The translations under genes were made by a program, and so were the position numbers. Below, piece by piece: positions 26,010 to 46,884 of a stretch of 64,000 nt of DNA. The notes below the pieces were generated by a model. That model saw only the letters and a list, made by a program, of their open reading frames with translations, did no database searches and was not told where the DNA came from. Source of the DNA: an uncultured Acidobacteriota bacterium. GTDB taxonomy: Bacteria > Acidobacteriota > Vicinamibacteria > Fen-336. Where the stretch lies: assembly GCA_963720545.1 (NCBI GenBank), contig OY970399.1:2624001-2688000 (forward strand). Reading direction: 5' to 3'. Each line of letters opens with the position of its first letter. The stretch's first letter is position 1.

Positions 26010-27510
26010 GTGGCGCGCTCTCATTCCTCCAAAGACCCGATCGCCGTCATCGACATCGGCTCCAACTCGGGCCGCGTGGTCGTCTACCGGCTCGATGCGG
26101 CCGGCGCCCTGCGCATCGTCGCCAGCGCCCGCGCCGGCCTGCGCCTGGTCGCCGACGTGGACGAATACCGCAAGCTCACCACCGAGGCGATGGACCGCGC
26201 CTTCGAGGCGCTCAGCGACTTTCGCGCGCTCGCCGAAGGCGCCGGCGCCCGCCGCATCCACGCGGTTGCCACCGCGGCGATGCGCGACGCCTCGAACGGC
26301 GACGCCTTCATCGCCCGCGTGAAGAAGCGCCTCGGCATCCGCATCGTCACGATCGACGGCAAGACCGAGGGCCGCTACGGCTTCATGGGCGCGCTGCACG
26401 GCCTGCCGGTGGAGAGCGGCTTCATCTTCGACATGGGCGGCGGCAGCATGCAGGTCTCGAGCTTTCGCGCAGCGGCGACTGGTGGAAGCGGTCAGCCTCA
26501 AGCTCGGCTCGCTGCGCCTCAGCAACCGCTTCCTGGAGGATGACCCGCCGTCGAAGGAAGACTTGCGCCGGCTGCGCAAGCACGTGCGCGGCGAGCTGGG
26601 CGAGATGGACCTGGCGAAGCTGCGCCGCGGCGAACAACTGGTGGGCACCGGCGGCACCGTCCGTAACCTGGCGAAGATCGACGCCCGCCGCAGCGACTTC
26701 CCGGTGGAGCGGGTGCACGGCTACCTGCTGTCGCGCGATTCGGTGGGCGAGATCGTCGAGCTCCTGTGCAGCACGAAGTCGTCGCGCCGCGACCAGATAC
26801 CCGGCCTCTCCGACGACCGCGCCGACTCGATCGTCGGCGGCGCCATCGGCATCGAATCGTTGATGGACACGCTGCGCGCCGACGAGATCGTGGTCTCGGG
26901 GCAGGGCGTGCGCGAGGGCCTGGCGCTCAGCCAGCTCGGCGCCAACCCGCCGTCGATCGAGGCGGTGCGCCGCACGTCGTTTCGTTCCCTCGGCCTGCGC
27001 TTCGACACCTGGAACGAGAAGAGCGCCGACCGCCGCCGTGGCCTCGCGACGGCCCTCTACCGAGCACTCGAGCCAAAGACCGACGCCGTCCACGTCGAGG
27101 CGCTTGCCCTCGCGGCCTACCTGCTCGACACCGGCCGCACCCTCGACTTCTTCAACCGCCACGAGCACACCGCCGAGATCCTGATGGCCGCCGCCCTCGA
27201 CGGCTTCTCGCAGCGCGAGATCGCCCTCGTCGCCGCGGTCGCGCGCCGTGCCGGCGCCTCGAACTGGGACCCTGCGGAGTGGTTCCCGCTGATCGACGAC
27301 GAAACCCGCGCCATCGAGCGCGCCGCCGTGGTGCTGCTGCTCGCCGACGAGCTGGAGGAGCGCTGCCGCGGCGAGCGCGCATTGTCGGTGCGAACCAAGG
27401 TGGGCCGCTCGAGCGTTACGGTGCGCGTCAAAGGCCTCGTCGGCTGGCGCGACACCAAGCTCAGCAACCGCTTCCACAAGGCGTTCGCCCGCGACCTCGT
27501 CGTGATCTAG
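26010..27510 (+). CDS. ppx: Ppx/GppA exopolyphosphatase (frameshift near 26470)
   Basis: IDIGSNS, ATAAMRDA, DMGGGS, GTGGT and GVREG, plus a C-terminal HD-like domain. Confidence 0.88.
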
Positions 27511-28184: not shown

Positions 28185-30318
28185 ATGAACTGGACCGCCT
28201 TGCCGCTTCTCCTGTGCGCCTCGGCCGCAATCGCCGCCGACGCCCGCCGACATTCGACCAACTGGTTTCGCTGCAGCGCCCCTACGACGCAGCACTCTCA
28301 CCCGACGGCGCCAAGGTCGTGTACACGGTGCGCGGCACCGACTGGGACAAGAACGCCTTCACGCAGCGCCTCGCAATAGCCGATGTGAAAGCGGCAACCT
28401 CGCGACCGATAGCCGAGGGCCTCGAGTCGAGCTACGCCGCCCAGTGGTCGCCCGACGGCAAGCGCCTCGCATTCCTGTCGGAGAGGGAAGGAAAGACCCA
28501 GATATTCACCGCCGCCGCGGACGGCAGCGACGCACAAGCCCTGACGAACGTAACGACCGGCGTAGCCCTCTACGCCTGGTCACCCGACGGCAAGACCATC
28601 GCCTTCGTCGCGCGAATCCCCAGACCAGACGCACTAACCAAGCGCGACAAAGAGGAAAGCGGCTACGAGGTCGTCGGCGAGTACGCGCCACAAAGCCAGG
28701 TGTTCCTGGCGGACACAACGACAAAAGCAGTCAGCCAGCTCACGAGCGGCCAAAACTCCATACGCCGCTTCACCTGGTCGCACGACGGCAAAAGGATCGC
28801 CTTCGACCACCGCCCAAGCGACAACACCAACACCGAGTTCAACTCCGACCTCTCGGTGGTGGACGTCGAGAGCAAAGCGGTCAAAAGCCTCGTCAGCCGC
28901 CCAGGCCCGGACCAGTGGCCCGTGTGGTCGCCGGACGACACGCAGATCCTGTTCGTCACCGGCAACGGCAACGCCGGTCACCACTATTTTTCAAACGGCC
29001 AGCTCGCGACAGTCCCGGCACAGGGCGGGGAAGTGACGCTGCTGAAGGTGCAGCACGACGAGCTCATGATTCCGATCGACTGGGAGCCGTCGGGCATCTA
29101 CATGCGCTCGTTCGCGGGCCCGTTCCCCAACCTCTATCGCGTGAACCCAACGACCGGCGCAGTAACCCTCATGGCCCCCGGCAAGGAGTGGATCACCTCG
29201 GGAAGATCGTGGAACAAGGAGAAGAACGAACTCGCGTTCATCTGCGCCACCCCGCAGAGCTACGACGAGGTGTGCGTGGCGGCAGCTTCCAACAGGCACA
29301 GCCCCGATGACCGCGCGCCGCATCACGCAGTTCGGCGACCAGCTAAAAACCTGGCCAAAGACCACGCACGAGCTCGTCCAATGGCAAAGCGAGGACGGCA
29401 CAAAGATAGAGGGAGTGCTTCACAAGCCGGAGAACTTCGACGAAAGGCCGCCGCTACCCGCTGATGATCGTGATCCACGGCGGCCCGTCGTCCTACTCGC
29501 GCCCCTCGCCGGTAGACGAATGGGGCAACGACGTCCCCTATCCCATCGAAGTGTGGCTGAAAAAAGGCGTACTGGTGCTGGAACCGAACTACCGCGGCAG
29601 CCTCGGCTACGGCGAAGCGTTCAAGAGCCTCATCGTCGGCAAGCTGGGCCAGGGCGAGCCGGAGGACATCGTCTCGGGCATCGACGCCCTGGTGAAAGAA
29701 GGAATCGTCGACAACGACAAAGTCGGCGTCGCCGGCTGGAGCTACGGCGGCTACCTGACAGCCCTCCTCTCGGTCCGCTACCCGCAGCGCTTCAAGGCCG
29801 CCTCGGCAGGCGCCGGCATCACCGACTGGCAAACCGACTACGTCAACAGCGACATCGACGACTGGTTCCACGCCTTCTTCCGCTCAACGCCATGGGACGA
29901 CCCCACCGGCGCCTGGACCAAGGGCTCCCCAATGACCTATATCAAGGATGCCCGCATCCCCACCCTCATCCAGCACGGCGCCGACGACCCGAGAGTGCCG
30001 ATCGCGAACTCAAAGGAGTTCTACCGCGCCCTCCAGGACAAGAAGGTCCCCTCCCGCCTGATCTTCTACAAGGGAATGGGCCACATCCTCGACACCCCAA
30101 GAGCCATGCGCGCCGCCATGTCCCACAACCTCGCCTGGTTCGACCAGTACCTGCTCAGCCCGGAGAAGAGCCCCGGAGAAGTAACGCTCAGTCCCTCACT
30201 CCTGCGGTCCCGCCGTATACTCCGGCCAATGGCTCAGGGCCCCTCTCTCGCAGGCAGTACAACTCTGCGACGAAGGCGCTCGGCGACAGGGTCGAGACCG
30301 ATCCAAAAGAGGATCTGA
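28185..30318 (+). CDS. Secreted S9 family peptidase with beta-propeller (frameshifts near 28250, 29300 and 29450; 3' end uncertain)
   Basis: Signal peptide, WSPDG repeats, HGGP, PNYRGS, GWSYGG, HGADDPRVP and GMGH. Confidence 0.88.
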
Positions 30319-30522
30319 GTAACCTCCTGCTGAAGATCCCCAACGTCGGCAAAGCAGAGTTAGCCACCTCGACCAACGACTCTTTTGCCGCTCCAAGCTT
30401 CGAGGGGTGGCGCCCCTTGCCCTTACCGTTGGCGACAAGCCCATGATGTGCGGAAGTTCAACGCATCGCGGCAGCTCGGAAGCGCCGGCGCTAGCGGCGT
30501 AGAGGATCGTGGAACCAAGGGC

Positions 30523-31212
30523 ATGAGCGGCGGCGATCACCACTACCACGGCCACAGGCAGCGCCTCCGGGAACGCTTCCTGAAATCCGGTCTGGCTGGT
30601 TTCGCCGACTACGAGGTAGTCGAGCTGGTGCTTACTCTCGCAGTTCCGCGCTCAGACGTGAAACAGCCGGCCAAGGCCCTGATAGCGCGTTTCGGTAATC
30701 TGCGGGGCATCCTGGATGCACCCATCGAGGACATGCGCGCGATCGCCGGCATCGGGACCGTCACGCCGGTTGCACTGCGGATCATCAAGGCTGCGGCGAC
30801 GCTTTTCCTACAGCAATGCTGCGAAGGCTACGACTCGCTCGTGGATCCGGCCAGACTTGCGGACTTTTGGCGCATGCGGATCGGAGCTCTTCGGAACGAG
30901 GTCTTCGAGGTGGCCTACCTGGACTCGGCGCATCGGCTCATGCGGGACGGGGTCGAGACGCTCGAGGAAGGCACCATCGACCGGGCATCGGTGTATCCGC
31001 GCCGGGTGATCGAGGCGGCCCTGAAGCGGGGAGCAGCGGCACTCGTGCTCGCGCACAACCACCCGAACGGCAACGTCACGCCGAGCGAGTACGACAAGGC
31101 GCTCACGCGGGCGATCGTGCTCGGTGCAGACGCCGTGCATCTCAAGGTCGTGGACCACCTCATCGTGTCGGCGCAGGAAACCTTCAGTTTCCGCAAGGCG
31201 GGTCTCCTGTGA
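30523..31212 (+). CDS. radC: RadC family (HhH + JAB/MPN) protein
   Basis: GHRQRLRERF, GTIDRASVYPR, HNHPNG...PSEYD and DHLIV. Confidence 0.92.
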   Translation: MSGGDHHYHGHRQRLRERFLKSGLAGFADYEVVELVLTLAVPRSDVKQPAKALIARFGNLRGILDAPIEDMRAIAGIGTVTPVALRIIKAAATLFLQQCCEGYDSLVDPARLADFWRMRIGALRNEVFEVAYLDSAHRLMRDGVETLEEGTIDRASVYPRRVIEAALKRGAAALVLAHNHPNGNVTPSEYDKALTRAIVLGADAVHLKVVDHLIVSAQETFSFRKAGLL

Positions 31213-34087
31213 GCATCGCGTCCGCCATCGAGCAGCACTACCCGGGGCTCAACGACGCCCAGCGCGCGATCGTCGGTCATCTCGATGGTCCGCTGCTCGT
31301 GATCGCCGGTCCGGGATCGGGCAAGACGTTCAGCATCGTGCTTCGCGCGCTAAATCTCCTGCTGTTGGAAAAGGCACACCCCGGGCAACTCGTGCTATGC
31401 ACCTTCACCGAGAAGGCCGCCTTCGAAATGCGCGACCGGTTGGCCGCCGCGGCGCGCAAAGTGGGCTACACAGGCGACCTCTCGGAACTAGCAATCTCTA
31501 CAATCCACAGCTTCTGCAACCGCGTGCTCACACAGCACCGCCACCGGACGGAGCTCGGCCACAACTTCGACACACTTGACGAGCTCACGCAACTCCTCCT
31601 GATCTTCGAACACTTCGACGAGATTATTGGACCAGCGGAGAACGACCTCTTCCTCGGCAAGTGGAAGACTCGTTGGACGGCCATCGTCGGCGCGCGCGGC
31701 TACTTCGACAAGACTCACCGAGGAGCTCGTCGATCCTGAACAGCTCATCGTCTCCGCCGACCCCATTCTCGTACGCCATCGGCAACGCCTATCGGCGCTA
31801 CGAGCGTGCGCTGCTCGATGCCAACCGCACCGATTTCGCGCATCTTCAGCGCCTCGTTTACGACTTGCTCAGCGATCCCAGCACCGTGGACGCCGTGACT
31901 CGCGATCTCCGCTACGTGCTTGTGGACGAGTACCAGGACACAAACTACATTCAGGAGCGGCTCCTCCTCAAACTCACCGAGACGAGCCGCAACCTGTGCG
32001 TGGTCGGCGATGAGGACCAGAGCCTGTATCGCTTCCGCGGCGCCACGGTGCGGAACATTCTCGAGTTCCCGCAACGGATGCCCGGCTGCGCTACAGTCAA
32101 ACTAACGACGAACTACCGCTCCCACCGCGCGATCGTGGAACGCTACGACCGCTGGATGGCTTCGACGGACTGGTCGAACCGCAACGGCGCCTCATTCCGC
32201 CACGACAAGACCATCGAGGCCGACGCAGCGGCAACGCATCCTGAACTACCCCTCCGTCATCGCGATCTGGGGCAAGGACAAGCGCGACGAGGCCGCTCGT
32301 TTCACAGACATCGTCGAGTTCCTGAGAGGCAATCGGGTCATCGCCGACTACGGACAAGTAGCCCTGCTCCTGCACAGCGTGCGGGAGGAACACAGCGGCC
32401 CGTATCTCGCCGCGCTGGAGGCCAAGGGCATCCCGACCTTCTGCCCGCGAGCCCGCGCGTACTTCGACATTCCACGAGGTCCGCTGACCTGGTCGCCTGT
32501 TTCGCGGTGCTATTCGGCTGGCACGGCAACGGGCGCGGCCAGGTCGGCGGCGCGGTAGCCGAACTGGCCAACTACGTCGACGATGCCATCGTTCGAACTC
32601 GCCCGCCGCTTCGGCGCACCGCACCCGCTCGCCGAAGCGCTTGCAACTATGGACCGGCGAGATCGCCGGCCCTGCAGGAAGGCGAAGCGCTCGACCTGCG
32701 TCCGGCCGACTACTTCTACCACCTGCTCGCCCTCGACCCGTTCAAGAGCTGCGGTGAAGAACGAGAACATGCGCCCGCAACCTCGCGATCTTCTCCCAGC
32801 TGCTGAACGTCTTCCAGAGCTACTACCACTACACCGTCGTCACGCACCGCAACCGCGAGTTCCTCCGGTTACACTTTTTCAACAGCTTCCTGCGTCTGCT
32901 CTACGACGGCGGCATCAACGAGTACGAAGACCCGGACCAGCCCTTCCCCAAGGGCCACGTGCAGGTGATGACGATCCACCAAGCCAAGGGACTCGAGTTC
33001 CCGGTGGTCGTGGTTGGTTCGCTCGCGACGCAGCTCTCGAGCCCCAAGCAGATCGACCGCGACCTGCGGCCCCTTCTACCACCGCCCGCCCTTCGAGCCT
33101 GAGAACCGCATCACTCGCTTCGACCGCATGCGGCTGCACTACGTGGCTTTCTCGCGGCCGCAAAAGGTGCTCGTGCTTACGGCCCACGAGCCCCCGAAGG
33201 AGCACTTCACTCCCATCTGGCAGGGGCTCCCGCAATGGCCCTACGTGCAGAAGGAGTTGCTCGCCGCCCAGCGCTTCGAAGTGCGCGAGAGCGATGCCGG
33301 TCAAGAAGTCCTACAGCTTCACCGGCGACCTCAAGGTCTACGAGACCTGCCCGCGCCAGTACCAGTTTTTCCGCGAGTACGACTTCACGCCCTCGCGCTC
33401 GGCGGTGATCTTCTTCGGCCTGCTCGTGCACCAGACAATCGAGGAGATCCACCGCATCGCCCTCGACGGCAGGCTCGACACGCTCGACGAGCCCCGCATC
33501 CGCGAGCTCTTTGACCGCACCTTCCGCTACCTCGTCGCGAGCGACGTGCGGCCCATCGGCGATAGGGCCCGCGAAGCAGCGCTTCGTGCAGGTGATGAAC
33601 TACTTCCACCAGAACCAGCGACGAGATGCGGCGCGTCATCCAGACCGAGGTGGACGTCTCGCTGGAGAAGGACGGCTACATCCTCACCGGCAAGGTGGAT
33701 CTGCTGCTCGGCGGCGACGGCAAGCTGGAACTCCTCGACTTCAAGACCTCGCCGCGCCCGAAGGACTGCCCCGAACTGCTCGCCACTTACGAGCGCCAGC
33801 TTTGCACTTACGCCCATATCCTGGAGCGCCGCCACGGCAAACGGCACCCGGAGCGGCTGCTCCTCTACTGGACTTCCGAACCGCGCAAGCAGGATGCGCT
33901 AGTGGTTCTGTCCTACGACCAGAAGCGCGTGGAGGAGGCCGGCCTGCACTTCGACGAGACCGTGCGTCGCATTCAGGCGCGCGAGTTCGCGGTGACGACG
34001 CCGCCCGAGGCGGCAATCTGCAAGGAGTGCGACCTGCGTATGCTGTGCCACGCGGATGGCGTGATCAGCCGGGAGGCACGCGGCTGA
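31209..34087 (+). CDS. UvrD/SF1A helicase fused to a Cys4 (Fe-S) PD-(D/E)XK nuclease (multiple frameshifts)
   Basis: LNDAQ, AGPGSGKT, TFTEKAA, TIHSF, DEYQDTN, VGDEDQSLYRFRGA, NYRS, TIHQAKGLEF and YVAFSRP. C-terminal YETCPRQY, GKVDL, DFKT and ICKECDLRMLC. Confidence 0.88.
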
Positions 34088-37000
34088 TGGCGTGCGACTA
34101 CCTGACCATCCGCGCAGAGAACGAGCGCCGCTACGGAACCGACATCGGGCGCATCGGCCCGATGCTGCTCGCCGATCGGTTACGACGATCGTACCCACTT
34201 CATCTACGAGCTTCTCCAGAACGCTGAGGACGCCCTGCTCAAGCGCGGCTCGGGTACCGGCAAGCGCTCCGTCCGGTTTCAGCTTGGGCCAGGGGCGCTT
34301 CGGATCAGCCACTTCGGCAAGCCCTTCGACCAGGCGGACGTACGCGGCATCTGCGGCATCGCGGAGAGCACGAAGGACCTCACCGCAATCGGGCGATTCG
34401 GCATCGGATTCAAGTCGGTCTACGCCTTTACCGATCGGCCAGAGATCTACTCCGGCGATGAGAGCTTTGCGATCGAGAGCTTTGTCTGGCCGGAAGCTGT
34501 TCCGCAGGCTCGCAGGGACGCAGACGAAACCGTAGTGCTTCTCCCTTTGCGTCACGGGGAGGATGCAACGGAGATCGAATCCGGGCTGAAGCGGCTGGGC
34601 GCGGGCTCGCTCCTCTTTCTTCGCGCAATCGAGGAGATCGAGTGGAGCGCGGAGAGTCGGTTATCCGGAATCTACTTGCGGAGCCAGCCGGATCGGCTTG
34701 CCGACTCGGTGCGCAGGATCACCGTCATCGGCCAGTCTGCGGGCTCGCCGGATGTGGAGGAATCCTGGATCCTTTTCTCGAAGTCGGTCTTCTCTCCTGA
34801 AGGCGAGAATGTGGGCAACGTCGAGGTTGCGTTCTCCATCGGCCGGGATACGAAGTCGGGCAGCGAGACGTTGCGCCCCATCTCGCGCTCGCCTCTCGTG
34901 GTCTTTTTCCCGACGGCCTTGGAAACGCACCTCGGGTTCCTGCTCCAAGGTCCCTTTCGGACCACGCCTAGCCGGGACAACGTGCCCGCGCAGGATGCAT
35001 GGAACCGGCATTGCGTGGCCGAGACGGCAGACGTCGTGCGTCATGCACTCCTCTGGCTGAGGGACAACGGTCACCTCGACGCGGGTGCCTTGCGCTGCCT
35101 GCCGCTTGATCGCGCGAAGTTCCCGGAAGGCGCGATGTTCGCGCCCATCTTCGAGGGCGCGCGAAGCGCGCTCGCCGCAGAAGCGTTGCTTCCCCGTCAC
35201 GGCGGCGGGCACCTGCCCGCGAAACAGGCCCGGCTTGCCCGGACCCAGGAATTGCGCGAGTTGCTGAGTCCGGCGCAGCTCACGGCGCTGCTCGGCGCAC
35301 AGACCGAACTCGCCTGGCTGGATGGCGCGATCTCGCAGGACCGCACACCGGACCTTCGGGACTACCTAATCGAGGAGTTGCAGGTCGAGGAAGTCAGACC
35401 CGAGACCATTCTCCCGAAGTTCACCGCGCAGTTCCTCGAAGCGCAGCCCGACGAATGGGTGCGCCGGCTCTATGAGTTCCTCGGCGACCAGAAGGCTCTG
35501 CACTTCCGCGCGCGTGAGCTGCCCCTCGTGAGGATCGAGGACTGCCGGCATGTCCGCGCCCAGGTCAACGGCCAGCCAGAGGCATTCCTTCCCGGCGCGG
35601 TCGCCACCGAGTTTCCGACAGTGCGCCGGGCCGTATGCAACACGGAAGGGTCCCGCACTTTTCTCGAAGCGCTCGGCCTTACGGAGCCAGACCTCGTGGA
35701 CGACGTGATCGTCAACGTGCTGCCGCGGTATTCCACGGATCAGGCCGCATTGGACTCCGAGGCGTACGCGGCCGACATCGAGCGGATGTTGCGCGCGTAC
35801 CGAACCGACTCGGACAGCCGCCGCGGCCGACTGGTCGCCGCGCTTCGCGAGACCAAGTTTGTCGCGCCACGAGCGCAGAGCGACGATGCGCCGCGAATGG
35901 CCACGCTGGGCGACGTCTACCTCGCGACTGAGCGGCTGACGCGGCTTTTCGCCGGCGTCCAAGGCGTGCGCCTTGTCGATGACGGCTACGCGTGCCTGAA
36001 GGGCGAGGACGTGCGCGACGTACTCGAAGCATGCGGCGCCGTGCGCTATCCGCGTCCGGTCGAAGACACATCGCTATCATGGGAGGAGAGGCGCAAGCTC
36101 CGCGTGCGGGCGGGGCACGCTGAGACCTCGCATCAGAACGATCGCGTAACCGACTGGTCGCTGAAGGGTCTAGAAGCCTGGATCGGGATGCTGCCGGGAC
36201 TCGGCGCCGAGGAGCGTCGGGAGCGGGCCAGCTTGCTGTGGGAAGAGCTGGCGAACTTGGAGGAGCGGCGCGGCAAGGCTGTCTTCGGCGCGGTCTATAC
36301 ATGGACGCACTACGGGAGCTACAGGGCCGACTACGACGCAGCTTTCGTGCGACTGCTCAACGGCAAGGAGTGGGTGCCGGACGCCGACGGAACTCTTCGC
36401 CTTCCGTCCGCTGTCCTGTTCGATTCGCTCGATTGGAAACCGAATCCGTTTCTGCTCTCGAAGATTCGCTTCAAGCGGCCGGTCATCGACCAGCTGGCGC
36501 GCGAGGCCGGCATCGAGCCCGGCTTGCTCGACCTGCTCAGGAAACTGGGTATCGCAAGCGAAGCCGAGCTGCGCCATCGGCTTGGTGTGCAGCAAGAAAG
36601 CCCTGCCGGCGACGAGGGCAGGGGCGAGAGCGTCGATGACGCACTGAAGAGGCTTGGAGCCACGTGAACGAACAAGCCGCGGGCGACGGATCCGACAGCT
36701 GGCGCGCCGACACAAAATGGCGCACAAGGGGGCGTCGCTCCTGGTGGAAGGCGTTCTGGCTCTAGCGGCTGGAAGCGCACTCCGGGCGGCTCGGGAGGCA
36801 GGCCGTTCATCTCCTATATCGGGACGCATACTGACGACGAGGGGCGAGACCCAGACGGCCTGGATCAGGCGTCGCGCGTGGCGCTCGAGGCGAAGGGCAT
36901 CCGCGCTGATACGCGCAGGGGTCCTCGGTGGCAGCGCACGCCGACACACAATAGCGGCTTCGATCTCTTCGAACAGGGACCGGATGGCAGGCCACGCCGC

Positions 37001-37230
37001 TGGTGCGAGGTCAAGGCGATGACGGGCCGGCTCGCGGACCGGCCGGTCGGCCTTTCGCACACGCAGTTTCAGTGCGCACGCGAGCACGGCGAGGCCTACT
37101 GGCTGTATGTGGTGGAATGCGCTGGCACAGACGAGGCTCGCCTTGTTCGCATACAGAACACCGCTGGCAAGGCACGCACCTTTACCTTCGACACGGCTGG
37201 CTCGACATCGCCGAGACAGATTCCGAATAA
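34087..37230 (+). CDS. Sacsin-type GHKL ATPase with C-terminal DUF3883/NOV-like nuclease domain (frameshifts near 34180 and 37190; in-frame TGA at 36665-36667)
   Basis: HFIYELLQNAEDA, IGRFGIGFKSVY, LLFLRAI and QGPFRTTPSRD. C-terminal GFDL...EVK...LSHTQ...YWLYVV. Confidence 0.82.
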
Positions 37231-37253
37231 GAACCTCGAGAGGACTAACGCGC

Positions 37254-39103
37254 ATGGCAAAGATCGACATCACACGGACCGAGCTGGTCTGGCAAGGCAA
37301 GTACAACGAGGACGGCGCGCTGAAGGAGGTGCCGCGCGTCAGCCTGCCCTTCCAAGTCATCGAGACCGTCAACGAGAGCCGCGCCACGCGCGAGGCGAAG
37401 AAGGGCAGCGTGCAGGCCGGCCTCTTCGACTTCTATGAGGGCAAGGAGGGCGACACCTTCGAGGCGGGCTGGCGGAACAAGCTCATCTGGGGCGACAACC
37501 TGCTGGTGATGGGGTCGCTACTGGAGAAGTTTACCGGGAAGATCGACCTCATCTACATCGACCCACCGTTTCATAGCGGGGCCGATTTCTCGATTGAGAC
37601 GTCGGTTGGTGAGCAGGATCTCATCAAGGAGCCATCGTTAATCGAGGAGAAGGCATATCGCGACACTTGGGCCGGTGGTGCCGGTTCATACCTCGCGATG
37701 ATGAAACCTAGACTTGAGCTTGCGAGGGACCTCCTGGCGCCAAATGGAAGCCTATTCATCCATCTTGACTGGCATGTGGGTTACTTTGTTCGCGCGCTTC
37801 TCGATGAGGTCTTCGGTAGCGAGCGCTTCAGAAACGAAATCGTTTGGTACTACTACAACCGGTTTGCTGCTGACGGCCAGAACTTTGGGAGGAAGCACAA
37901 CGTAATCTTCTGGTACACGAAGGGTGGCGAAGTAACGTATCGGCCAATTGATGAGGCTCGCGACACCCCACAAAAGCGACTTCTCCGAAAGAAACACAAG
38001 GGTAGAGCCATTAATGTACGCGGCGAATCCGACCGAACTCGTCTACTACGACCAGACAACTAGACGCATCGACGACGTTTGGCGAATTCCGCTCGTACCT
38101 CCCGCTTCTTCGGACTACACGGGATTCGCGACACAAAAGCCCGTCGAATGAGTAAGTCGAATTCTTGAGGCTTGCAGCAGGCCAGGTGGAATTGTCGCTG
38201 ACTTTTTCTGTGGTTCTGGATCATCGCTTGTCGCGGCGGAGAAACATGGAGCCCGCTGGATCGGCTGCGATCTGGGCCGCTGGGGCATTCACGTCACCCG
38301 CAAGCGGCTGCTCGGGATCGAGAACTGCAAGCCCTTCGAGGTGCTGAACCTCGGCAAGTATGAGCGACAGTACTGGCAGGGGGTGACATTCGGCGAAACG
38401 AAGGGCAAGCCGATCGTCGAGCAGGCGCTCTACGAGTACCTGGCCTTCATCCTCAAGCTCTACCGCGCGCAGCCAGTCGCGGGGATGGCGCACCTGCACG
38501 GCAGGAAGGGCAAGGCCATGGTCCATATCGGCGCCGTCGATGCCCCCGTGACCATTGCCGAGATCGACGCAGCGGTGGGCGAGTGCGGCAAGCTTAATGC
38601 AGAGCGAGCTGCATGTGCTCGGCTGGGAGTGGGAGATGGGCCTCTATGACCTGATGGTCGAGGCCGCGAAGAAGAGCGGGGTGAAGCTTCTCCTCCTGCA
38701 GATCCCGCGGGAGGTGATGGAGCAACAGGCTGCCGCCAAGGGTGATGTGCGTTTTTTTGAACTGGCCTACCTCGAGGCGGAGATCAAACAGCCGAAGAAG
38801 CTCGCCGCGCAGGTGGTGCTCAAGGACTTCGTACTCCCCAACACCGAACTGATCCCTGAGGACGTGCGCAGCAAGGTGAAGAAGTGGTCTGACTACATCG
38901 ACTACTGGGCGGTGGACTGGGACTTTCAGAACGACACCTTCATGCAGGGATAGGTGGCCTACCGCACGCGCAAGGAGCGTAAACTTCCGCTTAGCTCCGA
39001 CGCCCACTCCTACGAGAAGAGTGGCCACTACCGCATCCTCGTCAAGGTGATCGACATCTTCGGCAACGACACCTCGCAGGCCTTCGACGTGGAGGTGAAG
39101 TAG
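37254..39103 (+). pseudogene. mod: Type III RM methyltransferase (Mod, beta class), interrupted
   Basis: WGDNL, IYIDPPF, RNEIVW, TQKP, DFFCGSG and VKVIDIFGND. In-frame stops at 38149 (TGA) and 38951 (TAG), frameshifts near 38030 and 38595. Confidence 0.85.
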
Positions 39104-39105
39104 CC

Positions 39106-41885
39106 ATGGCCAAGGCCGTCATCGCCTACGACAGAGAGCTGCCTGAGATACAGGGCCGCCAGCCATGGGAAAAACAGACTTCGTACCTGGTAAAGGACGA
39201 CGCGGCTCCGACCGGCTGGCGAGCGGAGACCTCTGGCCGCCGCCCGAGCCGACTGCTGCTGGTGCCGAGGATCCGCGCCGAAGTGGACGCTTGGCGCGCC
39301 GGCAGCTACCAAGGCGCGTCCGAGGTTACGCGGCGTCTCTTCGAATACTGGTTCGGCGACGACCACGAGGTCCCCGGCTTCGGCGTGCCTTTTCGCTATC
39401 ACTTCTGCCAACGCGAGGCAATCGAAACGCTGGTGTGGCTGGTGGAGGTCGCTGACCAGCGCGACAACCAGAAGCTCATTGAAACCCACGCGACGATTTT
39501 CAAGAAAGACTTGTTCACGAAGAACATCACCTTCCAGACCACGATGGACAGCCGGCGGCAACTGCGGCGCTATGTGCCGGAACTGGACGCTGAGGGCCTG
39601 CAGGACCTGCCGCCCCAGGATCTGCGTCGCTTCGCTCTCAAGATGGCGATGCGCTCCGGCAAGACCTAGGTGGTGGCGATGGCCATCGTCTGGGCCCGCT
39701 TCCACAAGCTGCGCTTGCCGGACTCGGAGATGTCCACCAATTTCCTGATCGTCGCGCCGAACATCATCGTTTACCAGCGGCTGGAGCGCGACTTCGCTGC
39801 CAACCGCATCTTTTACGAGCTTCCGCTGATTCCTCCCGAGTGGCGCGGGGCGTTTTCGCAGAAGGTGATCCTACGCGGCGAGGCGGCCGAGCCCGACGCG
39901 TCGAGCAACCTCTTTCTCACCAACGTTCACCAGCTCTACGAGTCGCGCGACGAGGAGTGGATGCTGCAGAACGCCGTCGAGGCGCTGCTCGGCAAGGAGC
40001 CTGCGAGGGACCACGCTGCTTCAGGCCAGCGCCCCATGCTGGAGCGCGTCAAATCGCTTCAGGATCTGATCGTGCTGAACGACGAGGCCCACCACGTCCA
40101 TGACGAGGATTTGGCCTGGAGCCGGTCGCTACTCGGCGTGCATCGCGCGCTGCCGAAAGGCCTCGCACTCTGGCTCGACTTTTAAGCCACGCCCAAGGAT
40201 CAGAACGCGATGTATTTTCCTTGGACGGTCTGCGACTACCCGCTTGCCCAGGCGGTGGAGGACCGCATCGTCAAGGCGCCGCTCATCGTCACCAAGGAGG
40301 ACGACGCCAAGCAGCCAAAGGACGACCCCGATGGCGTGACAGCCGACAACATTGGTGAGAAGTACGGCTACTGGCTGCGGGCGGCCGTACAGCGTTGGAA
40401 AGATCATTACAAGGTATACAAGCAACTCGAGGTATAGCCGGTGCTCTTCATCATGGCTGAGAAGAACGTTTACGCCGATGCAATCGGCGGATACTTATTG
40501 AAAACTAAGGACTTCCGCTTCAAGGAGACCGAGGTGTTGGTCATCCACACCGACGCAGCAGGCGAGATCACCAAGAAGGACCTCGACAAGGCGCGCGAGG
40601 CCGCCCGCGACATCGACAAGGCAGAGAGCAAGGTCAAGGCGATCGTTAGCGTGATGATGCTGCGCGAGGGGTGGGACGTCCGGAACGTCACCGTGGTACT
40701 GGGCTTGCGTCCCTTCACGGCGAGGGCGGAGATACTACCCGAGCAGGTGATCGGGCGTGGCTTACGGCTGATGACTCAGGTGAGCCCAGATCGGACACAG
40801 ACTCTGGAGGTACTCGGCACCCGCAACCTGCTCAACGTGCTGCGTAGCCAGCTTGAAGCGGAGGGCGTGGGGGTCGCCAGTACCAAGATCGATCCGATGC
40901 CACCGGTCATTATCTCGCCGATCAAAGAACGTCTCGCCTACGACATCGCGATTCCGATCACCAAGCCCAGCCTCGAGCATGACATCCGCAAGCTCTCCGA
41001 ATTGGAGGTCGAGGCGCTTGACGCCATTTACGAACAGGAAGATCTCGCCGAGGTGTTCCGGATAGAAAGCTCAAGCTCGAGTTCGCGACCACTGCGACAG
41101 AGGTCCATCAGGCCGACATCGCGTCGGACGAGTTGGCACCTGCGTCTGAGCTGCTTGCCCGCATCACCAACAAGGTCATCGACCGTGCCAAGTTGCCGAA
41201 TCGGTTCGCGGAGCTCTATCCCTCGGTGCGGGGCTACGTCGCGACCCGCTGCTTCGGCAGAACTGCGAATCTTGAGGACGAGACCCTCCTTTCCCACCTT
41301 TCCCGGTTGGAGCTGCAGGATGGCATCGCTAAGTATCTCGCCCGCAAGATCGCTGAGCTGACGATCGAGCGGCGTGCCATCGAGTTCGATAAAGCTGACT
41401 TCCGATTGTCTGATACGAAGCCGTTCAGTTGGCGGCGCAATCTCCCACCGCTTGAGGCGAGGAAGACGGTCTTCAACTACGTCGCCACCTACAATGAGTT
41501 TGAGCGCCGTTTCGCCGTGTTCTTGGATAAAGGGGCGAGCGACGTGTTGCGCTTCGCGTCCCTAGGCACGACCGAGCAGGGCGAGTCCGGCACCCAGTTC
41601 CGGGTCGATTACCTGAAGCCGAGCGGTGCAATAGGCTTCTATCATCCAGACTGGGTGGTCGTGCAGAAGACGAACGTCGGCGAAGTGAACTGGATTATCG
41701 AGACCAAGGGACGCGTCTGGGAGGGCACGACGGCGAAGGATGAAGCGCTGCAGACCTGGTGCTCACGGATCAGCCTCGCCACAGGAAAAACATGGCGCTA
41801 TACCAGGATCGACCAAGTCAAGTTCGATGGGTACACGCCGATAGACCTCAGCGATTTGCTCGATTCGTTGACGCGGCAGCTGTGA
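39106..41885 (+). pseudogene. res: Type III RM restriction subunit (Res), interrupted
   Basis: QREAIE, degenerate Walker A MAMRSGKT, DEAHH, F*ATP, MLREGWD, QVIGRGLR and C-terminal YHPDW...IETKG. In-frame stops at 39667, 40183 and 40435, frameshift near 41065. Confidence 0.85.
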
Positions 41886-42087: not shown

Positions 42088-42830
42088 TGACCTGCCCCCA
42101 AATCTAGCTCGCGTTAGGTTGGCATTTCTCCGGCCGGAATGGAGGGAATGACGCGATGCAGGCTTACGACGAAACCGATCATCGGTGCGCTGAAGGAGCA
42201 CACGAAGCCGGGCTGAAGGCTCGAAGTTGATGTGTAGCACGGCCTAGGGGAGCACACTATCTACCGCTGGAATCGAAATTGGGGGCGTGGATGTGAGCGA
42301 AGCGCTGCGACTGAAACAGCTCGAGGATGAAACCGACGGCTGAAGCATTGGTAGCCGACCTGACTCTGGACTACCATGCGCTAAAGGCGGTGGCGAGAAA
42401 AAGTGGTGACGACCACGCAGCGGCGTTCTGCGGTGAAATTCCTCACGAACGAGAGTACGCGGTGAGCCAGCGTTGTGCATGTCGGCTCCTCGGCTTGAGC
42501 GAAGCGACTTGTCGCCACCGTCGCCACGCATCGACCAGAATGTCAAGATTCACGGGCAGTTGACGACTCTGGCTGCGGAGCGGTAGGGGTGGGGCAATAT
42601 CTACGTGTGCAGGGGATATTTGCGCGACGTGCTGGTCAGCGAATGAACCACAAGCGCGTCTATCGTATCTACCGCGAGGCGGCCTGGCAGTGCGACGGCG
42701 CCGTCGGAAGCGGGATCGCTGGCTCTTACCGCCGGCCGATTGCCACGCCCACGCAAGGGAACGAGCGCTGGTCGATGGATTTTGGGGTCGACGGCACCTT
42801 TGCGTGCAGCCAAGGGCACGGAGGGTGAAC
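42088..42830 (+). mobile_element. Degenerate IS3-family (IS407-group-like) remnant
   Basis: Left end TGACCTGCCCCCA at 42088. orfA fragments RLKQLEDE and VADLTLD..ALKAV. orfB fragments VSQRCACRLLG, NHKRVYRIYRE and NERWSMDF. No DDE core or right inverted repeat found. Confidence 0.8.
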
Positions 42831-42911
42831 TCACTACACCGCACGTTAGCGTGAGCTGCAAATGGTCCCAACGGTATACTCCTGACAACACTTCTAGGTG
42901 GGGACAGCAGG

Positions 42912-45832
42912 ATGTCCTATTTCGGCGACCACTACGACTGTGTGCGCCTGCCAATCGGCGGCGCAGGGAAGCCTGGCCTACGACGTGGACAGCTCGGAGC
43001 GCTCCACGCGATCGCATCGCATTTTGTACTGAAGCGAGACGCGGCCCTCGTAACAATGCCCACAGGGTCGGGGAAGACTGCCGTCCTAGTCCTTCTGCGC
43101 CTCGCTCGAGGGCAAGGCGAGTCCTGGTTGTAACCCCTAGCCGCCTCGTGCGGGGCCAGATTGCTGAGGAGTTCGCCACGCTCTCAAGCCTCAAAGCAGC
43201 GGGAGCTCTTGCGGGAGTAGAGGACCTGCCGGCGGTTGTGGAGGTCGCAAAAAAGGATCACGTCACCGGAGGCTTGGAACAGTCTCTCTTCTGAAGGATG
43301 TCGTTGTGAGCACGCCGAACTGCGTTAGTCCAGCCCTTCGCGACGTACCGGAACCTCCCCCTGACCTTGTTCGACCTTGTGCTCGTGGACGAGGCACATC
43401 ACAGTGGGGCGCACACGTGGAACGAGTTGGTCGCCGCCTTTCCGATGGCGCAGAAGCTGCTTGTCACGGCAACACCGTTTCGTGCGGATCGCCGTGAGAT
43501 TAAGGCCACGTTGATCTACGTCTATCCGACGCGCGAGGCCTTCAACGATAAGGTGTTCGGACCCATTCGATACGAGGCGATCAAAGCCGATGCCTCCGAG
43601 GATCCCGACTCAGCCGTAGCGAAACGAGCCACAGAAGTACTTGCGGCCGACCGTAGCGCTGGCCTGTCGCACTTCCTCATGGTACGAACCGATGGTCGGG
43701 CGAGGGCAGACCACCTCGCAAAGATCTATGAGCCCACTGGACTCAAATTGCGTCTCGTTCACAGCCGTCACTCCCCGAAGGTCATCACCAAGACGATCGC
43801 GGCCCTTCGTAGGAAAGAGCTGGACGGCATCATCTGCGTGGACATGCTGGGCGAAGGCTTCGATTTCGCGAACCTCAAGATCGCCGCGATTCACAGCCCG
43901 CACAAGTCCCTTGCGATCACGCTGCAATTCATTGGCCGTTTCGCTAGGACGAATGCTCCGGACATCGGCCCTGCGACGTTCCTCGCGATTCCTTCTGACA
44001 TCGAAATCGAAGCGCAACGCATATACCGGGAGGGCTCCGAGTGGCAGGAGATCATTCCAAAACTCCTTGAGGTCCGGATTACCAGGGAGGAAAAAACGCG
44101 CGAGACACTCAGGAAATTCCACGTTGAGACGAGCGAGTCCGGTGACGTGGAAGACCTTTCACTCTACGCGTTGAGGCCGTTTTGGCACGTCCGTATCTAC
44201 AAGGTAGAGGATGGCGTCGATTTCGAAGGCGACCTTAACCTGCCTCATGGCATGAATGTCATTCATCGTGCCGAGGCTGAAGATCCTGATGCACTTATCG
44301 TCGTCACGCGGCAAGAAAGTCAGCCCGATTGGATCGACATCCCGATGTTCGAGCAGGTCGAGCACCACGTGTTCATGCTCTACTATCACGAGGCGTCCCG
44401 CCTCCTCTTCATCACGGCGTCGAAACGGACCCCGAGCCTCTACGATCGGATCGCCGCCGGTGTTGCCTCGAGTGACCCGGCTCTACTCGATCTCGACACG
44501 GTCAACAGGGCCCTCCGGGACCTTAAGGACACCGTGATGTATCAAGTGGGAATGCGGGTCCTTGGGCTCTCCAGGAGTTCCTCCTATGTCACGAAGACCG
44601 GTCCAAGACCGGCTGACGAGATTGCGCAAGGGGATGGCCGTCGCTTCGGCCAAGGGCACTGCATGGCCACCGCGGTCGACGAGGGCCAGAAGGTCACAAT
44701 CGGGCTAAGCAGCGGGTCCAAGGTGTGGGCCACCGACATACCCAGATACCCGAGCTCCTCGACTGGCTGGACGGCCTGGCCCAGAAGCTTGCTTCCGACG
44801 CGAAGGTCGATACGGGATCCGGATGGGACCGCCTGCCGAGTACACGGATTGTCTCAACTCTTCCAGACGGCCCTTTCGCCGCTGCCTGGAAGGACGTCGT
44901 CTATCGAAGCAATGTGATCATCCGTGGCCATGACGATCGCAACCAGCCCTTCGAGATACCGATCTTGGATCTCTCAATGGATATCGATCGAGCGGCCTCG
45001 TCTGCCGATGCCGTGATACTCGTGATTAGGCACGAGACGCTCTATTGGAGACTTCGTTTTTCGCTGACGGCGGCGACCCTGTTCTCGTTGGCCGAGAGCA
45101 ATTCACCAGGGCCGGTCGTTTATCACGACGGGCTTGAAGTGAGTCTCACACAGTACCTAGCCAGCGAACCCCCGTGCATATACTTCGCCGATCTCTCGGT
45201 GCTTGAAGGGCGCCAGCTCACGCGGCCCCGCTCTGACAGCCCGTTTGACGACGGTCAAGTGCGCGTGATCGACTGGGACACTGAGCAAGTCGACATCGAA
45301 GTCGAACGCGGTGCCAGCGCAAAAGGCTTGGCTTCAATTCACGACTACCTTGGCGTTCAACTTCGGCAAAAAATCTGACTCCGTAGTTGTCTACGACGAC
45401 GGTTCCTATGAGGTTGCTGACTTCATCGAAGTTGTCGGGCGTGGCGGGGACGTGTTTGTGACGTTCTACCACTGCAAGAAGTCCGCCGAATCCAAGGCCG
45501 GGGCTCGGGTTGAGGACCTCTACGAGGTCCTTGGCCAGGCCGTGAAGTCGACCGCATGGGCCTACGCCCGCGAGCGGCTATTTCGCCGCCTCCAGGAACG
45601 TGCCCATCGATCGCCCTGCCTCAACGGCGACATGAAGAAGCTCGAAACACTGTTGATGTCGAAGTTTGCACCCGATTACTACGACGTAGTAGTTGTGCAG
45701 CCCGGCCTCTCCAAGGCCAAGCTCAGCGACGAGAAGCTTGATCCGCGAGTCCGAACGCTTCTTGCTGCGACAGCTGACTACGTCACGGGGTCGGGACGCT
45801 GTCGCAGTTTCTTGATCATGTCTTCAGACTAG
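42912..45832 (+). CDS. Large SF2 (DEAH) helicase with a putative C-terminal PD-(D/E)XK-like nuclease (about 5 frameshifts)
   Basis: LRRGQ, MPTGSGKT, DEAHH, TATPFRAD, MLGEGFD and QFIGRFAR. C-terminal DDGSYEVADFI...FYHCK...LYEVLGQAVKS. Confidence 0.8.
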
Positions 45833-46232
45833 CCCTTCCGGGTGGAAGAATTGGCGGAAGTCGCTTCATCTTGGCGAACGTCCGTTGGACGTTTAACTTC
45901 GCGGCGCGTGAATCTCTTCTATAGATGTGGCGGAAGATCCCTTCCAATTCCTTCACTTCGGCGTGGGTGATGTTGTCCCAAACCTCGAAGACGGAGCAGT
46001 GGGTCCAGAGGTCCTTCTTCCTCTTGCGGTGGGACCGAAGTCGGGGCCCAATCCCTCCTTCCGCTGCCATCCCGACATAGACGACGTCGTATCGCCGAAT
46101 CCTGGGACGATATTTGTAAAGAACGTAGATGCCGCGCATTCCGCGCGGCAGATCGTCAATGTACTGCACCGAAACGAACTCTTCTTGCCGCTTGAAGAGC
46201 CTGAGTTCGCTGACCTTTGACTTGACGTTCAC
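45816..46232 (-). CDS. GIY-YIG nuclease family protein
   Basis: RGIYVLY...VVYVGMA...RLRSH...E...LN. Confidence 0.75.
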   Translation of the reverse strand: MNVKSKVSELRLFKRQEEFVSVQYIDDLPRGMRGIYVLYKYRPRIRRYDVVYVGMAAEGGIGPRLRSHRKRKKDLWTHCSVFEVWDNITHAEVKELEGIFRHIYRRDSRAAKLNVQRTFAKMKRLPPILPPGRASLKT

Positions 46233-46252
46233 GGCACGCTCCGCACGGGACC

Positions 46253-46846
46253 CTAGTGCGCGGATTGACCGCGCGGCTTGATGCTGCCTCGACGTGCCAG
46301 TGCAGCCCACGCTGCAACCGCCTTGTGTCCACGCAAGTCTGCGTACGTGTCCGTGTACGCCACGAACCAGGACAAGAGTCCATCCCATTCGGCGAGCTGA
46401 CCGGGCGGATGAAGTTGCCACCCGAGCTCCTCTAGCGTCCAGTTCGCTTTTGCGCTGTTTCGCAGCATTGATGTTGTTACTGAATTGTCGACCGTGTCGT
46501 TACCGCCGCGAGCAACAGGGTCAACATGGTCAATCGTCGGATACAGCTGCCAGTAAGCAATGTGCGTGTCGGACATCCTCCAGTTTGGGTGATAAGGAAA
46601 CGCGTCGCCGAGGCGGAGGGACAGCACGCGAAGAACGCCGGGAAACACGAGGCGGTGCCCGGAATAGCGATCGACGAAGCCGTCTCGCTTGAACAGCTCA
46701 AACGCTTCCGATGGGCGAAAAGTACGCGCTACCGGCGGCATTCGGCGGAATGGGTAGTCTTTTTGGAGGAGAGCAGTGGCCTGTCCGACGCGGGCGTGCG
46801 TCAACAGGTTGCAGACTTCCGACAAAACATCTGTTTCGGTGCCCAC
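46253..46846 (-). CDS. HNH endonuclease
   Basis: FKRDGFVDRYSG and TIDHVDPVARGGNDTVDNSVTTSMLRNSAK. Confidence 0.8.
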   Translation of the reverse strand: MGTETDVLSEVCNLLTHARVGQATALLQKDYPFRRMPPVARTFRPSEAFELFKRDGFVDRYSGHRLVFPGVLRVLSLRLGDAFPYHPNWRMSDTHIAYWQLYPTIDHVDPVARGGNDTVDNSVTTSMLRNSAKANWTLEELGWQLHPPGQLAEWDGLLSWFVAYTDTYADLRGHKAVAAWAALARRGSIKPRGQSAH

Positions 46847-46884
46847 GTGGGGGCGAGAGTATCGCAAGCAGCGGTCGACGGGGA

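Follow-up and report, generated by a model that had tools for sequence, protein, structure and literature searches.

Introduction

Type III restriction-modification (R-M) is the textbook two-gene system, and in its classical form it needs only Mod and Res. In one subfamily, which occurs across phyla, on plasmids and on viral contigs, this pair is accompanied by one to three further genes for DNA processing. Here, we analyze a member of that subfamily in a 64,000-nucleotide (nt) stretch of contig OY970399.1 (assembly GCA_963720545.1) from an uncultured Acidobacteriota bacterium (Vicinamibacteria, Fen-336). This whole stretch is called the window throughout. Its positions 30523-41885 carry, all on the plus strand, genes for RadC, a UvrD-Cas4-type helicase-nuclease, a short Tiamat (TmtA)-like protein, Type III Mod and Type III Res. 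We read them as a broken, mobile Type III-like cassette, inherited together with UvrD-Cas4, RadC and a short Tiamat that are predicted to unwind and degrade foreign DNA marked by Mod-Res, and we assign to this reading a probability of roughly 0.55.

The helicase-nuclease is the best described of the extra genes. According to the main text of Hudaiberdiev et al. (2017, BMC Evol Biol 17:232, PMC5704561), UvrD-Cas4 fusions are monophyletic and their commonest neighborhood consists of Type III Mod and Res, with WYL/helix-turn-helix (HTH) and Schlafen-like ATPase-HTH genes occasionally present in the same loci. The same text regards the fusion as likely ancillary, acting by unwinding and cleavage, and likens its nuclease to RecB/AddB in promoting recombination (PMC5704561). 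In the literature searched, no other paper uses the term UvrD-Cas4, and from 2018 on there was none on Type III R-M with a Cas4-like helicase.

The gene in the middle of the cassette belongs to a second described group. Tiamat has homologues in plants and animals, NO VEIN and sacsin. It protected as a single gene when first tested (cited in 10.64898/2026.09.30.754977), and the text of the citing preprint (October 2026) reports that it has ATPase activity, cleaves single-stranded DNA (ssDNA) at specific sites and nicks duplex DNA weakly, and draws an analogy with MutL-UvrD. As that text describes them, the commonest neighbors of Tiamat are helicases, often fused to nucleases; they include superfamily 1 (SF1) helicase-nucleases, adenine methyltransferases are found near Tiamat only where a helicase is present, and one case lies inside a Type I R-M system (10.64898/2026.09.30.754977).

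The third extra gene encodes RadC. To our knowledge, RadC has been without an accepted function for decades. In the texts of PMC5512222 and PMC11981726, it is a domain with a JAB fold whose function is disputed; a role in nucleic-acid processing is predicted for it, and fusions to DinG-type helicases are described.

Two elements of the cassette are therefore already in print, namely the association of UvrD-Cas4 with Type III Mod and Res (2017) and Tiamat as a named anti-phage gene. An original prediction made for this DNA knew no named system with this gene order and took a match to one as grounds for giving the proposal up. The prediction is partly supported, and such a match does exist in part: as far as the text of PMC5704561 goes, UvrD-Cas4 with Mod and Res was published in 2017, and the middle gene is of the TmtA family. 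Three points appear to be new: the partnership with a translationally coupled RadC, seen in one clade, a plug-in slot, and the specific tie of short Tiamat to the cassette.

Results

Five Genes with Tight Junctions

Gene identities were assigned by scanning 22 stop-to-stop segments with Pfam and PADLOC. The five genes are:

30523..31212, plus strand: RadC, 229 amino acids (aa), with a helix-hairpin-helix (HhH)-type N-terminal domain and a JAB domain; the sole intact gene of the five.
31209..34087, plus strand: UvrD-Cas4-type helicase-nuclease, with an SF1 helicase and a PD-(D/E)xK nuclease with four Cys; broken.
34087..37230, plus strand: short Tiamat (TmtA)-like gene, with a sacsin/GHKL-type ATPase N-terminus and a NOV_C (DUF3883) PD-(D/E)xK C-terminus; broken.
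37254..39103, plus strand: Type III Mod, an N6/N4 DNA methyltransferase, read across three frames.
39106..41885, plus strand: Type III Res, with a superfamily 2 (SF2) helicase-like ATPase and a C-terminal endonuclease; interrupted by stops and a 2-nt insertion.

The original prediction had described five co-oriented genes joined by a GTGA overlap, a TGATG overlap and gaps of 23 and 2 nt, and all four junctions were confirmed when re-read. The TGA of RadC (31210-31212) and the GTG start of UvrD (31209-31211) share GTGA at 31209-31212, and the TGA of UvrD (34085-34087) and the ATG of the Tiamat-like gene (34087-34089) share TGATG at 34085-34089. The Tiamat-like TAA (37228-37230) is followed after 23 nt by the Mod ATG at 37254, and the Mod TAG (39101-39103) after 2 nt by the Res ATG at 39106. 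The accompanying domain calls (radC, UvrD-nuclease, sacsin/NOV, Mod and Res) were borne out by Pfam and PADLOC.

The RadC protein matched Pfam RadC (1e-32), UPF0758_N (3e-7) and HHH_2. On NCBIfam it scored 168.7 bits with TIGR00608, above the cut-off of 133.85, and 174 bits with the equivalog NF000642, below the cut-off of 180. Fragments of the helicase-nuclease matched Pfam UvrD-helicase (1e-30), PDDEXK_1 (3.5e-15), Cas_Cas4 (1e-5), UvrD_C and AAA_19. On NCBIfam, there were partial matches to AddA, RecB and Cas4, each below its cut-off. Intact homologues of this protein have ~953 aa. Across 37 UvrD-Cas4 homologues, the Walker A motif, DEYQD, the nuclease D/D-x-K and the four Cys were all invariant; in the numbering of the UvrD-Cas4 of locus L084, the invariant nuclease residues are C710, C932, C935, C941, D826, D839 and K841.

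In the Tiamat-like gene, both parts expected of a Tiamat were found, the ATPase N-terminus and the DUF3883/NOV_C nuclease C-terminus. Pfam matched SACS (3e-14) and NOV_C (2e-8), and PADLOC matched TmtA PDLC03968 (3.8e-51) over profile positions 72-853 of 1486 and, at the C-terminus, PDLC03969 (4.6e-25) over positions 1348-1499 of 1563. An intact short-Tiamat relative also matched the NCBIfam sacsin N-terminal ATP-binding-like domain (3.5e-23). The PADLOC TmtA profiles have 1063-1782 positions; relatives of the short form match only positions 72-853 and 1301-1509, and Pfam detected no DUF3684 in short Tiamat. Because the full-length TmtA architecture with its DUF3684 middle was not found, we call the gene Tiamat-like, short form. 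Neither does it stand alone as a Tiamat would, being placed between UvrD-Cas4 and Mod in the window, and 7/7 close relatives adjoin the cassette.

Mod matched Pfam N6_N4_Mtase on two fragments (5e-17 and 5e-10) and PADLOC MTase_III PDLC03633 on four successive fragments (5e-57, 6e-28, 4e-14 and 3e-6), which together span profile positions 16-612 of 616; an intact homologue matched MTase_III at 2e-124. Res matched Pfam ResIII (5e-6) and RE_endonuc (2e-5) and PADLOC REase_III (2.8e-8), and an intact homologue matched ResIII (1.8e-17) and REase_III (4.9e-17). Since that homologue reached 286 bits with the NCBIfam BPTD_3080 family restriction endonuclease, below the 800-bit cut-off, Res is best classed as a relative of this equivalog and not as a member. 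In tblastn, Res from L084 matched the window with 87% identity over residues 1-654 and 82% over residues 654-919. The window thus holds the Mod and Res domains of a Type III system, with mod directly 5' of res on the same strand, and no full-length Mod and Res reading frames in this copy.

Recurrence of the Gene Order in Many Phyla, on Plasmids and in Viral Contigs

It had been proposed that recurrence of radC-uvrD-[x]-mod-res across phyla would speak for a real system, and the outcome was positive. The same order and tight junctions occur in many unrelated genomes, which indicates that the gene arrangement is not due to chance.

At E ≤ 1e-5, the C-terminal nuclease fragment of the window matched 1479 proteins, the best 120 of which were 82-91% identical and most of them 951-956 aa long. 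The intact homologue P0014 was used as seed and retrieved 79 loci from species-representative genomes and 78 from metagenomes; in the fetched loci, RadC, UvrD-Cas4, Tiamat, Schlafen-like, Mod and Res were mapped by tblastn and neighbors by Pfam. Loci with at least 40% identity to P0014 form clade A (n = 74), and those with 31-39% identity form clade B. The two clades are set apart in a FastTree of UvrD-Cas4 (a quick tree with midpoint root and SH-like support only). Mod was counted only where the helicase gene was full-length and was followed by 2.5 kilobases (kb) or more of sequence.

Mod lay downstream in 21/29 clade A loci, and Res followed Mod in 18/20. Among the eight clade A loci without Mod, two contigs (L081 and L104) end right after Tiamat, L011 has a 1487-aa HEAT-repeat open reading frame (ORF), and the remaining five are helicase-only loci, Chloroflexota included. 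In clade B, which comes mostly from Bacillota and gut metagenomes, Mod was downstream in 17/24 loci and Res after Mod in 14/14; here, the loci without Mod comprise DEAD-helicase fusions, prophage-like settings with DUF1351/RNase_T, and others of unrelated context. Full-length loci of the viral collection had Mod downstream in 33/36 cases and Res in 31/36, three of them with RadC. On plasmids, 30 records matched UvrD-Cas4 at 1e-40 or better. Three plasmids were inspected (Blastomonas, Enterococcus and Nitrosomonas; two typed as conjugative and one as mobilizable), and all three carry in a row a helicase, a methyltransferase and a DEAD/DEAH or TnsA-endonuclease-N (Res-like) protein. In these neighborhoods, the trio of UvrD-Cas4, Mod and Res is the deep core of the cassette.

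The Res-like protein of clade B has ~865 aa (L015, L017, L020 and L026; plasmid loci L173 and L174). Pfam, in the genome loci, and the annotation, in the plasmid records, recognize it only through its C-terminal TnsA-endonuclease-N domain, and its match to REase_III is marginal (1.8e-6). As a result, annotation pipelines do not label such loci as Type III systems.

The Accessory Genes Follow One Res/Mod Subfamily

With Res as the seed, a reciprocal search covered 401 genomes of the window's phylum, 17 of which had a match. All six genomes with Res of at least 73% identity, the one of the window included, showed the cassette context. UvrD-Cas4 was present in five of these six: it lies upstream of Mod and Res in G059, G393, G205 and the window, and in G198 the cassette is divided between two contigs. 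The sixth genome, G130, keeps RadC without UvrD-Cas4, and its locus L169 (G130:C1:2231000-2250900) reads RadC, ~1.1 kb without UvrD match, Tiamat, Schlafen-like ATPase-HTH, Mod and Res. It seems that the helicase-nuclease was deleted here and the rest kept. Around distant Res (31-39% identity), UvrD-Cas4 or RadC was found at 0/11 loci, 6/11 of which offer at least 8 kb upstream of Mod. As the context is present in 6/6 close and 0/11 distant Res loci, the accessory genes evidently go with a particular Res/Mod subfamily and not with Type III systems generally.

Another locus, L171 (G226:C1:1886000-1905900), lacks UvrD-Cas4 but has a Tiamat-like gene (28% identity over ~500 aa) after a distant Type III Mod-Res pair (~29% identity). 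Here, Tiamat-like genes and Type III systems may have come together independently.

RadC Is a Coupled Partner in Clade A

Where at least 750 nt of upstream sequence was available, RadC lay directly upstream in 35/63 clade A loci and in 0/25 of clade B. The RadC-positive loci are spread over nearly all subclades of clade A, with scattered losses (FastTree, midpoint root). The RadC stop and the UvrD start overlap by 4 nt in 20/36 junctions and lie within 15 nt of each other in 29/36. In 31 cassette RadCs, the JAB residues E...HxH...D were invariant. No paper tying RadC to a UvrD-Cas4/Mod/Res cassette was found in the literature searched.

The genome has a second RadC gene outside the window (G000:C1:3982620-3982976), which scores 140 bits with Pfam RadC against 115 for the cassette RadC. 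It is presumably the housekeeping copy, and the cassette RadC is therefore an extra paralogue.

A Variable Slot Between UvrD-Cas4 and Mod

The three genes upstream of Mod had been proposed to form an accessory module, with a variable gene [x] in the middle. The variable slot is real. A fixed module is not what we found: RadC is limited to one clade, and Tiamat is one alternative for the slot. The spacing from UvrD-Cas4 to Mod falls into classes of ~0-60 nt, ~1.4-1.5 kb, ~3.2 kb and 4.5-4.7 kb, and the slot can hold:

Nothing.
A Schlafen/AlbA_2 or DUF4062 protein with HATPase_c_4 and Fic-like_C (Schlafen-like ATPase-HTH).
Short Tiamat, ~1050-1080 aa.
Canonical long TmtA, in L089 (PDLC03969, E = 0) and L104.
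A 112-aa ORF with an HTH_3/Peptidase_M78 protein, PADLOC PD-Lambda-2_B 3.6e-33 (L082:4480-5917 and L106:12911-14369).
Unknown ORFs.

The exact order of the window, RadC-UvrD-Tiamat-Mod-Res, was found in L207 and L095. L004 and L091 match it too, on contigs that start inside UvrD, and there are near-matches in L094 (part of Mod, no Res), L170 (which ends within Mod), and L006 and L210 (an extra gene). Searches seeded with short Tiamat pointed back to the same cassette: UvrD-Cas4 cassettes adjoin 2/2 close relatives in the phylum sample and 5/5 in the viral collection. In four loci of the viral collection (L213, L216, L218 and L220), short Tiamat stands upstream and divergently oriented, next to clade B UvrD-Cas4-Mod-Res cassettes. 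Its sequence is 54-55% identical to clade A Tiamat, and the adjoining helicase is 35-37% identical to P0014; in a quick tree, this divergent Tiamat nests within clade A Tiamat. Short Tiamat is thus optional for the cassette yet specifically associated with it, in two arrangements, as judged from small numbers and close relatives only.

Horizontal Spread and Genomic Surroundings

UvrD-Cas4 is 74-87% identical among Planctomycetota, Betaproteobacteria, Pseudomonadales and Vicinamibacterales. In the window's own family, 1/58 other genomes has even a 30% helicase relative. This combination indicates that the cassette is horizontally mobile and patchy in its distribution. The guanine-plus-cytosine (GC) content of 28-47 kb is 0.57-0.67 against ~0.69 for the genome. 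For the genome of the window, the island is a foreign cassette that, as assembled, is broken in four of its five genes.

RadC/UvrD-Cas4 was also considered as a housekeeping pair of Vicinamibacteria, on account of 82-91% identity in more than 100 clusters. This was rejected in view of the 1/58 family genomes and the near-identical copies in other phyla. Scans for island borders and operon signals (tRNA scan, flanking direct or inverted repeats, promoter and terminator patterns) gave none above chance.

Downstream of res, 42740-47065 holds further defense-like genes in the same low-GC stretch. The reading frame of an SNF2/ResIII-type helicase is broken into three or more ORFs (42740-45832), weak PADLOC matches to candidate systems are PDC-S71 at 45311-45832 and PDC-S14 at 45816-46421 on the minus strand, and no family was matched by a minus-strand ORF of 270 aa (46253-47065).

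Damage in the Window Copy

That the frameshifts of this copy need repair had been recognized in the original prediction. The frameshifts are indeed present, and the damage had been understated, with four of the five genes broken. In total, there are ~20 frame breaks and four in-frame stops, in every gene except RadC, which has no indel in comparison with three homologues.

In UvrD, comparison with three intact homologues (80-82% DNA identity) revealed 14 single-base insertions, no deletion and one in-frame 3-nt insertion; few of the 14 insertions fall at base runs. With intact P0014, tblastn spans residues 1-953 in 8 pieces, the frame advancing stepwise. In the Tiamat-like gene, the frame shifts near 34180 and again near 37195, and an in-frame stop lies between the two at 36665-36667; intact relatives match the gene by tblastn with residues 1-31 in frame 1 and residues 32-1063 in frame 2, followed by a frame-1 tail to the TAA. 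Mod has at least three frame-breaking indels, placed as deletions of 8 and 2 nt and a 1-nt insertion (MAFFT with three homologues), and runs through frames 3, 1 and 2. The lesions of res are:

39667..39669, plus strand: in-frame TAG; TGG in seven homologues, the Trp after Walker A GKT.
40183-40185, plus strand: in-frame TAA; a Ser codon in homologues.
40435-40437, plus strand: in-frame TAG; an Arg or Lys codon in homologues.
41064..41065, plus strand: 2-nt insertion, changing frame 1 to frame 3 (homologue alignment and tblastn).

The damage extends to the flanking genes. The Ppx gene is split by a +1 shift (26463-26468), and the S9 peptidase (28214-30446) is read in frames 2, 3 and 1 in turn. 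The rpoB gene, located elsewhere in the genome, is a single open frame of 1470 aa, which speaks against a genome-wide error rate; GC-phase frame plots and open-frame coverage, used as a genome-wide measure of frameshift density, were coarse and noisy. The insertion-only lesions of UvrD, together with the shifts in Ppx and the S9 peptidase, look like a local patch of insertion-type consensus errors.

Two simple causes were rejected. Natural pseudogene decay as sole cause does not fit the insertion-only lesions of UvrD, few of them at base runs, nor the +1 shift in Ppx. Assembly errors as sole cause do not fit the four in-frame stops, which are made by substitution. Lineage-specific synonymous/non-synonymous changes in the window amount to 24/14 in UvrD and 37/45 in Res, by a crude measure and not clearly unlike intact relatives, and we see in them no clear sign of long neutral decay. 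The cause may be a mixture of assembly error and mutation.

Discussion

By analogy with described enzymes, the cassette could work as follows. Mod would methylate host sites, and Res with Mod would recognize and cut unmethylated DNA in the manner of EcoP15I. UvrD-Cas4 would enter at the break or nick, unwind the DNA and degrade it as AddAB/RecBCD do, by which a single Type III cut would become irreversible with no need for host RecBCD. RadC, with its HhH DNA-binding part and JAB metal center, could be a nucleic-acid-processing partner of the helicase, as the RadC-DinG fusions suggest. The Tiamat-like protein, in which a GHL ATPase is joined to a PD-(D/E)xK domain that would cut ssDNA, might use the ssDNA made by the helicase, comparable to MutL with UvrD. 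Candidate roles put forward in the original prediction were resection after Res cleavage, a guard against R-M inhibitors, and action of the JAB domain on modified DNA. If the accessory genes do work with Mod and Res, one cut would be turned into irreversible degradation of the target, and RadC and Tiamat, both poorly understood, would gain a fixed and testable partner.

Several observations weigh against this reading. The loci were gathered by helicase similarity, so that related cassettes were counted repeatedly and the numbers do not stand for independent events. In 8/29 clade A and 7/24 clade B loci, UvrD-Cas4 has no Mod/Res beside it, and it can therefore work in other settings, such as the Chloroflexota subclade, prophage-like contexts and DEAD fusions. 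RadC is missing from 28/63 clade A loci and from all 25 clade B loci with enough upstream sequence; it follows that RadC cannot be essential to the core. In G130, RadC, Tiamat, Mod and Res are kept without detectable UvrD-Cas4. The unrelated genes in the slot fit a hotspot for hitch-hiking genes. The clade split rests on a quick, midpoint-rooted FastTree, the cassette of the window cannot be assumed to be active given the lesions in its sequence, and, as the literature searched gave no experiment with any member, every mechanistic step above is one that we infer.

A stronger version would make the cassette one restriction machine with the logic of mismatch repair, in which Mod/Res read methylation, a MutL-like Tiamat ATPase-nickase loads UvrD-Cas4 at the marked DNA, and RadC trims the displaced strand. 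We regard this version as unlikely. If it were true, one Type III recognition event would lead to processive destruction of the invader, a defined biochemical task could for the first time be assigned to RadC, and the slot would accept various second effectors as plug-ins, all of them controlled by one and the same methyl mark.

Among the other explanations, one has the accessory genes serve the cassette itself: UvrD-Cas4 and RadC would repair or process breaks in under-methylated host DNA, aiding establishment without killing new hosts. The high mobility of the cassette fits such a role, and so does literature linking UvrD, AddB/RecB-type nucleases and, historically, RadC to recombinational repair (in the texts of PMC5704561 and PMC5512222). 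The text of PMC5704561 adds that most hosts already have RecB, suggesting a dedicated rather than a general function. Yet plain Type III systems spread without helpers in the phylum sample (11 loci), the repair role of RadC is disputed in the texts of PMC5512222 and PMC11981726, and the defense-type cargo of the slot (Tiamat, Schlafen-like and PD-Lambda-2_B-like) fits an offensive role better. We therefore consider this explanation doubtful.

The genes could also be independent systems stacked side by side in a defense island, functionally uncoupled and co-moving by proximity: RadC paired with UvrD-Cas4, Tiamat on its own, and an ordinary Type III system. Tiamat did protect alone when first tested, as reported in the text of 10.64898/2026.09.30.754977. 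The slot carries unrelated cargo (Schlafen-like ATPase-HTH, PD-Lambda-2_B-like and unknown ORFs), UvrD-Cas4 is also found without Mod/Res, and the window has more defense-like genes downstream. Proximity sits poorly with the adjacency of UvrD-Cas4, Mod and Res, which persists to 32-37% identity across phyla, plasmids and viral contigs, and with the conserved start/stop overlaps. Moreover, the helicase-linked Res subfamily is distinct from plain Type III Res in the phylum (6/6 close versus 0/11 distant), and short Tiamat adjoins the cassette in 7/7 seeded finds, in two arrangements. On balance, stacking is quite improbable.

Least probable of all is that the accessory proteins act before or instead of Res, as a back-up effector arm (triggered, for example, by anti-restriction) or by opening DNA for Mod/Res: the idea was already raised in the original prediction and the G130 cassette, which persists without UvrD-Cas4, implies that the arms are separable, but Pfam and NCBIfam show no sensor or regulatory domain in RadC, UvrD-Cas4 or short Tiamat, and, with nothing in the data for a trigger, it is pure inference.

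The degradation of Mod-Res-marked foreign DNA by the accessory proteins is thus the reading that we retain, and it can be set against the known systems. Hma, DISARM, BREX and MADS share with the cassette the combination of self-marking by a methyltransferase with helicase, ATPase or nuclease effectors, and the DUF3883 domain of HmaA is related to the Tiamat nuclease. The PADLOC scan of the 22 fragments detected none of their signatures (HmaA-C, DrmA/B, PglZ/BrxC and Mad), save for a weak mad2 match (2.2e-6) on a Mod fragment.

The fusions of Hudaiberdiev et al. (2017) are the same in having an SF1 UvrD helicase, a Cas4-like PD-(D/E)xK nuclease with four cysteines and a Mod/Res neighborhood. 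They differ in that the main text of that paper, to which the comparison is confined, has no RadC, no slot between helicase and Mod, no Tiamat as an occupant and no experiment. Tiamat shares with the gene described here the N-terminal GHKL/Hsp90-like ATPase and the C-terminal DUF3883/NOV_C nuclease, whereas the present gene is a short form that matches only the N- and C-terminal parts of the long profiles and lies inside a Type III cassette. The words RadC, JAB and Cas4 do not occur in the text of 10.64898/2026.09.30.754977, the figures and supplements of which may already show the arrangement of the window. RadC-like DinG, as described in the text of PMC11981726, likewise unites a RadC JAB domain with a DNA helicase and keeps the E, HxH, D metal site; it is a fusion to a DinG-type SF2 helicase, whereas the cassette RadC is a separate protein with a gene start/stop-overlapped to an SF1 UvrD-type helicase-nuclease.

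With AddAB, RecBCD and AdnAB, UvrD-Cas4 has in common an SF1 helicase and a RecB-family nuclease. Its four-Cys layout (one upstream and CxxCx5C) is similar to that of the AddB/Cas4 iron-sulfur nucleases, a resemblance known from sequence. We know of no Chi-recognition subunit for UvrD-Cas4, and it differs from those complexes in being one ~953-aa polypeptide in a mobile R-M cassette rather than a part of housekeeping repair. Finally, Type III systems of the EcoP1I/EcoP15I type have the same Mod directly 5' of Res, N6_N4_Mtase, and SF2 ATPase with endonuclease. In contrast to the classical pair, the Res subfamily of the cassette matches REase_III weakly and travels with one to three extra genes.

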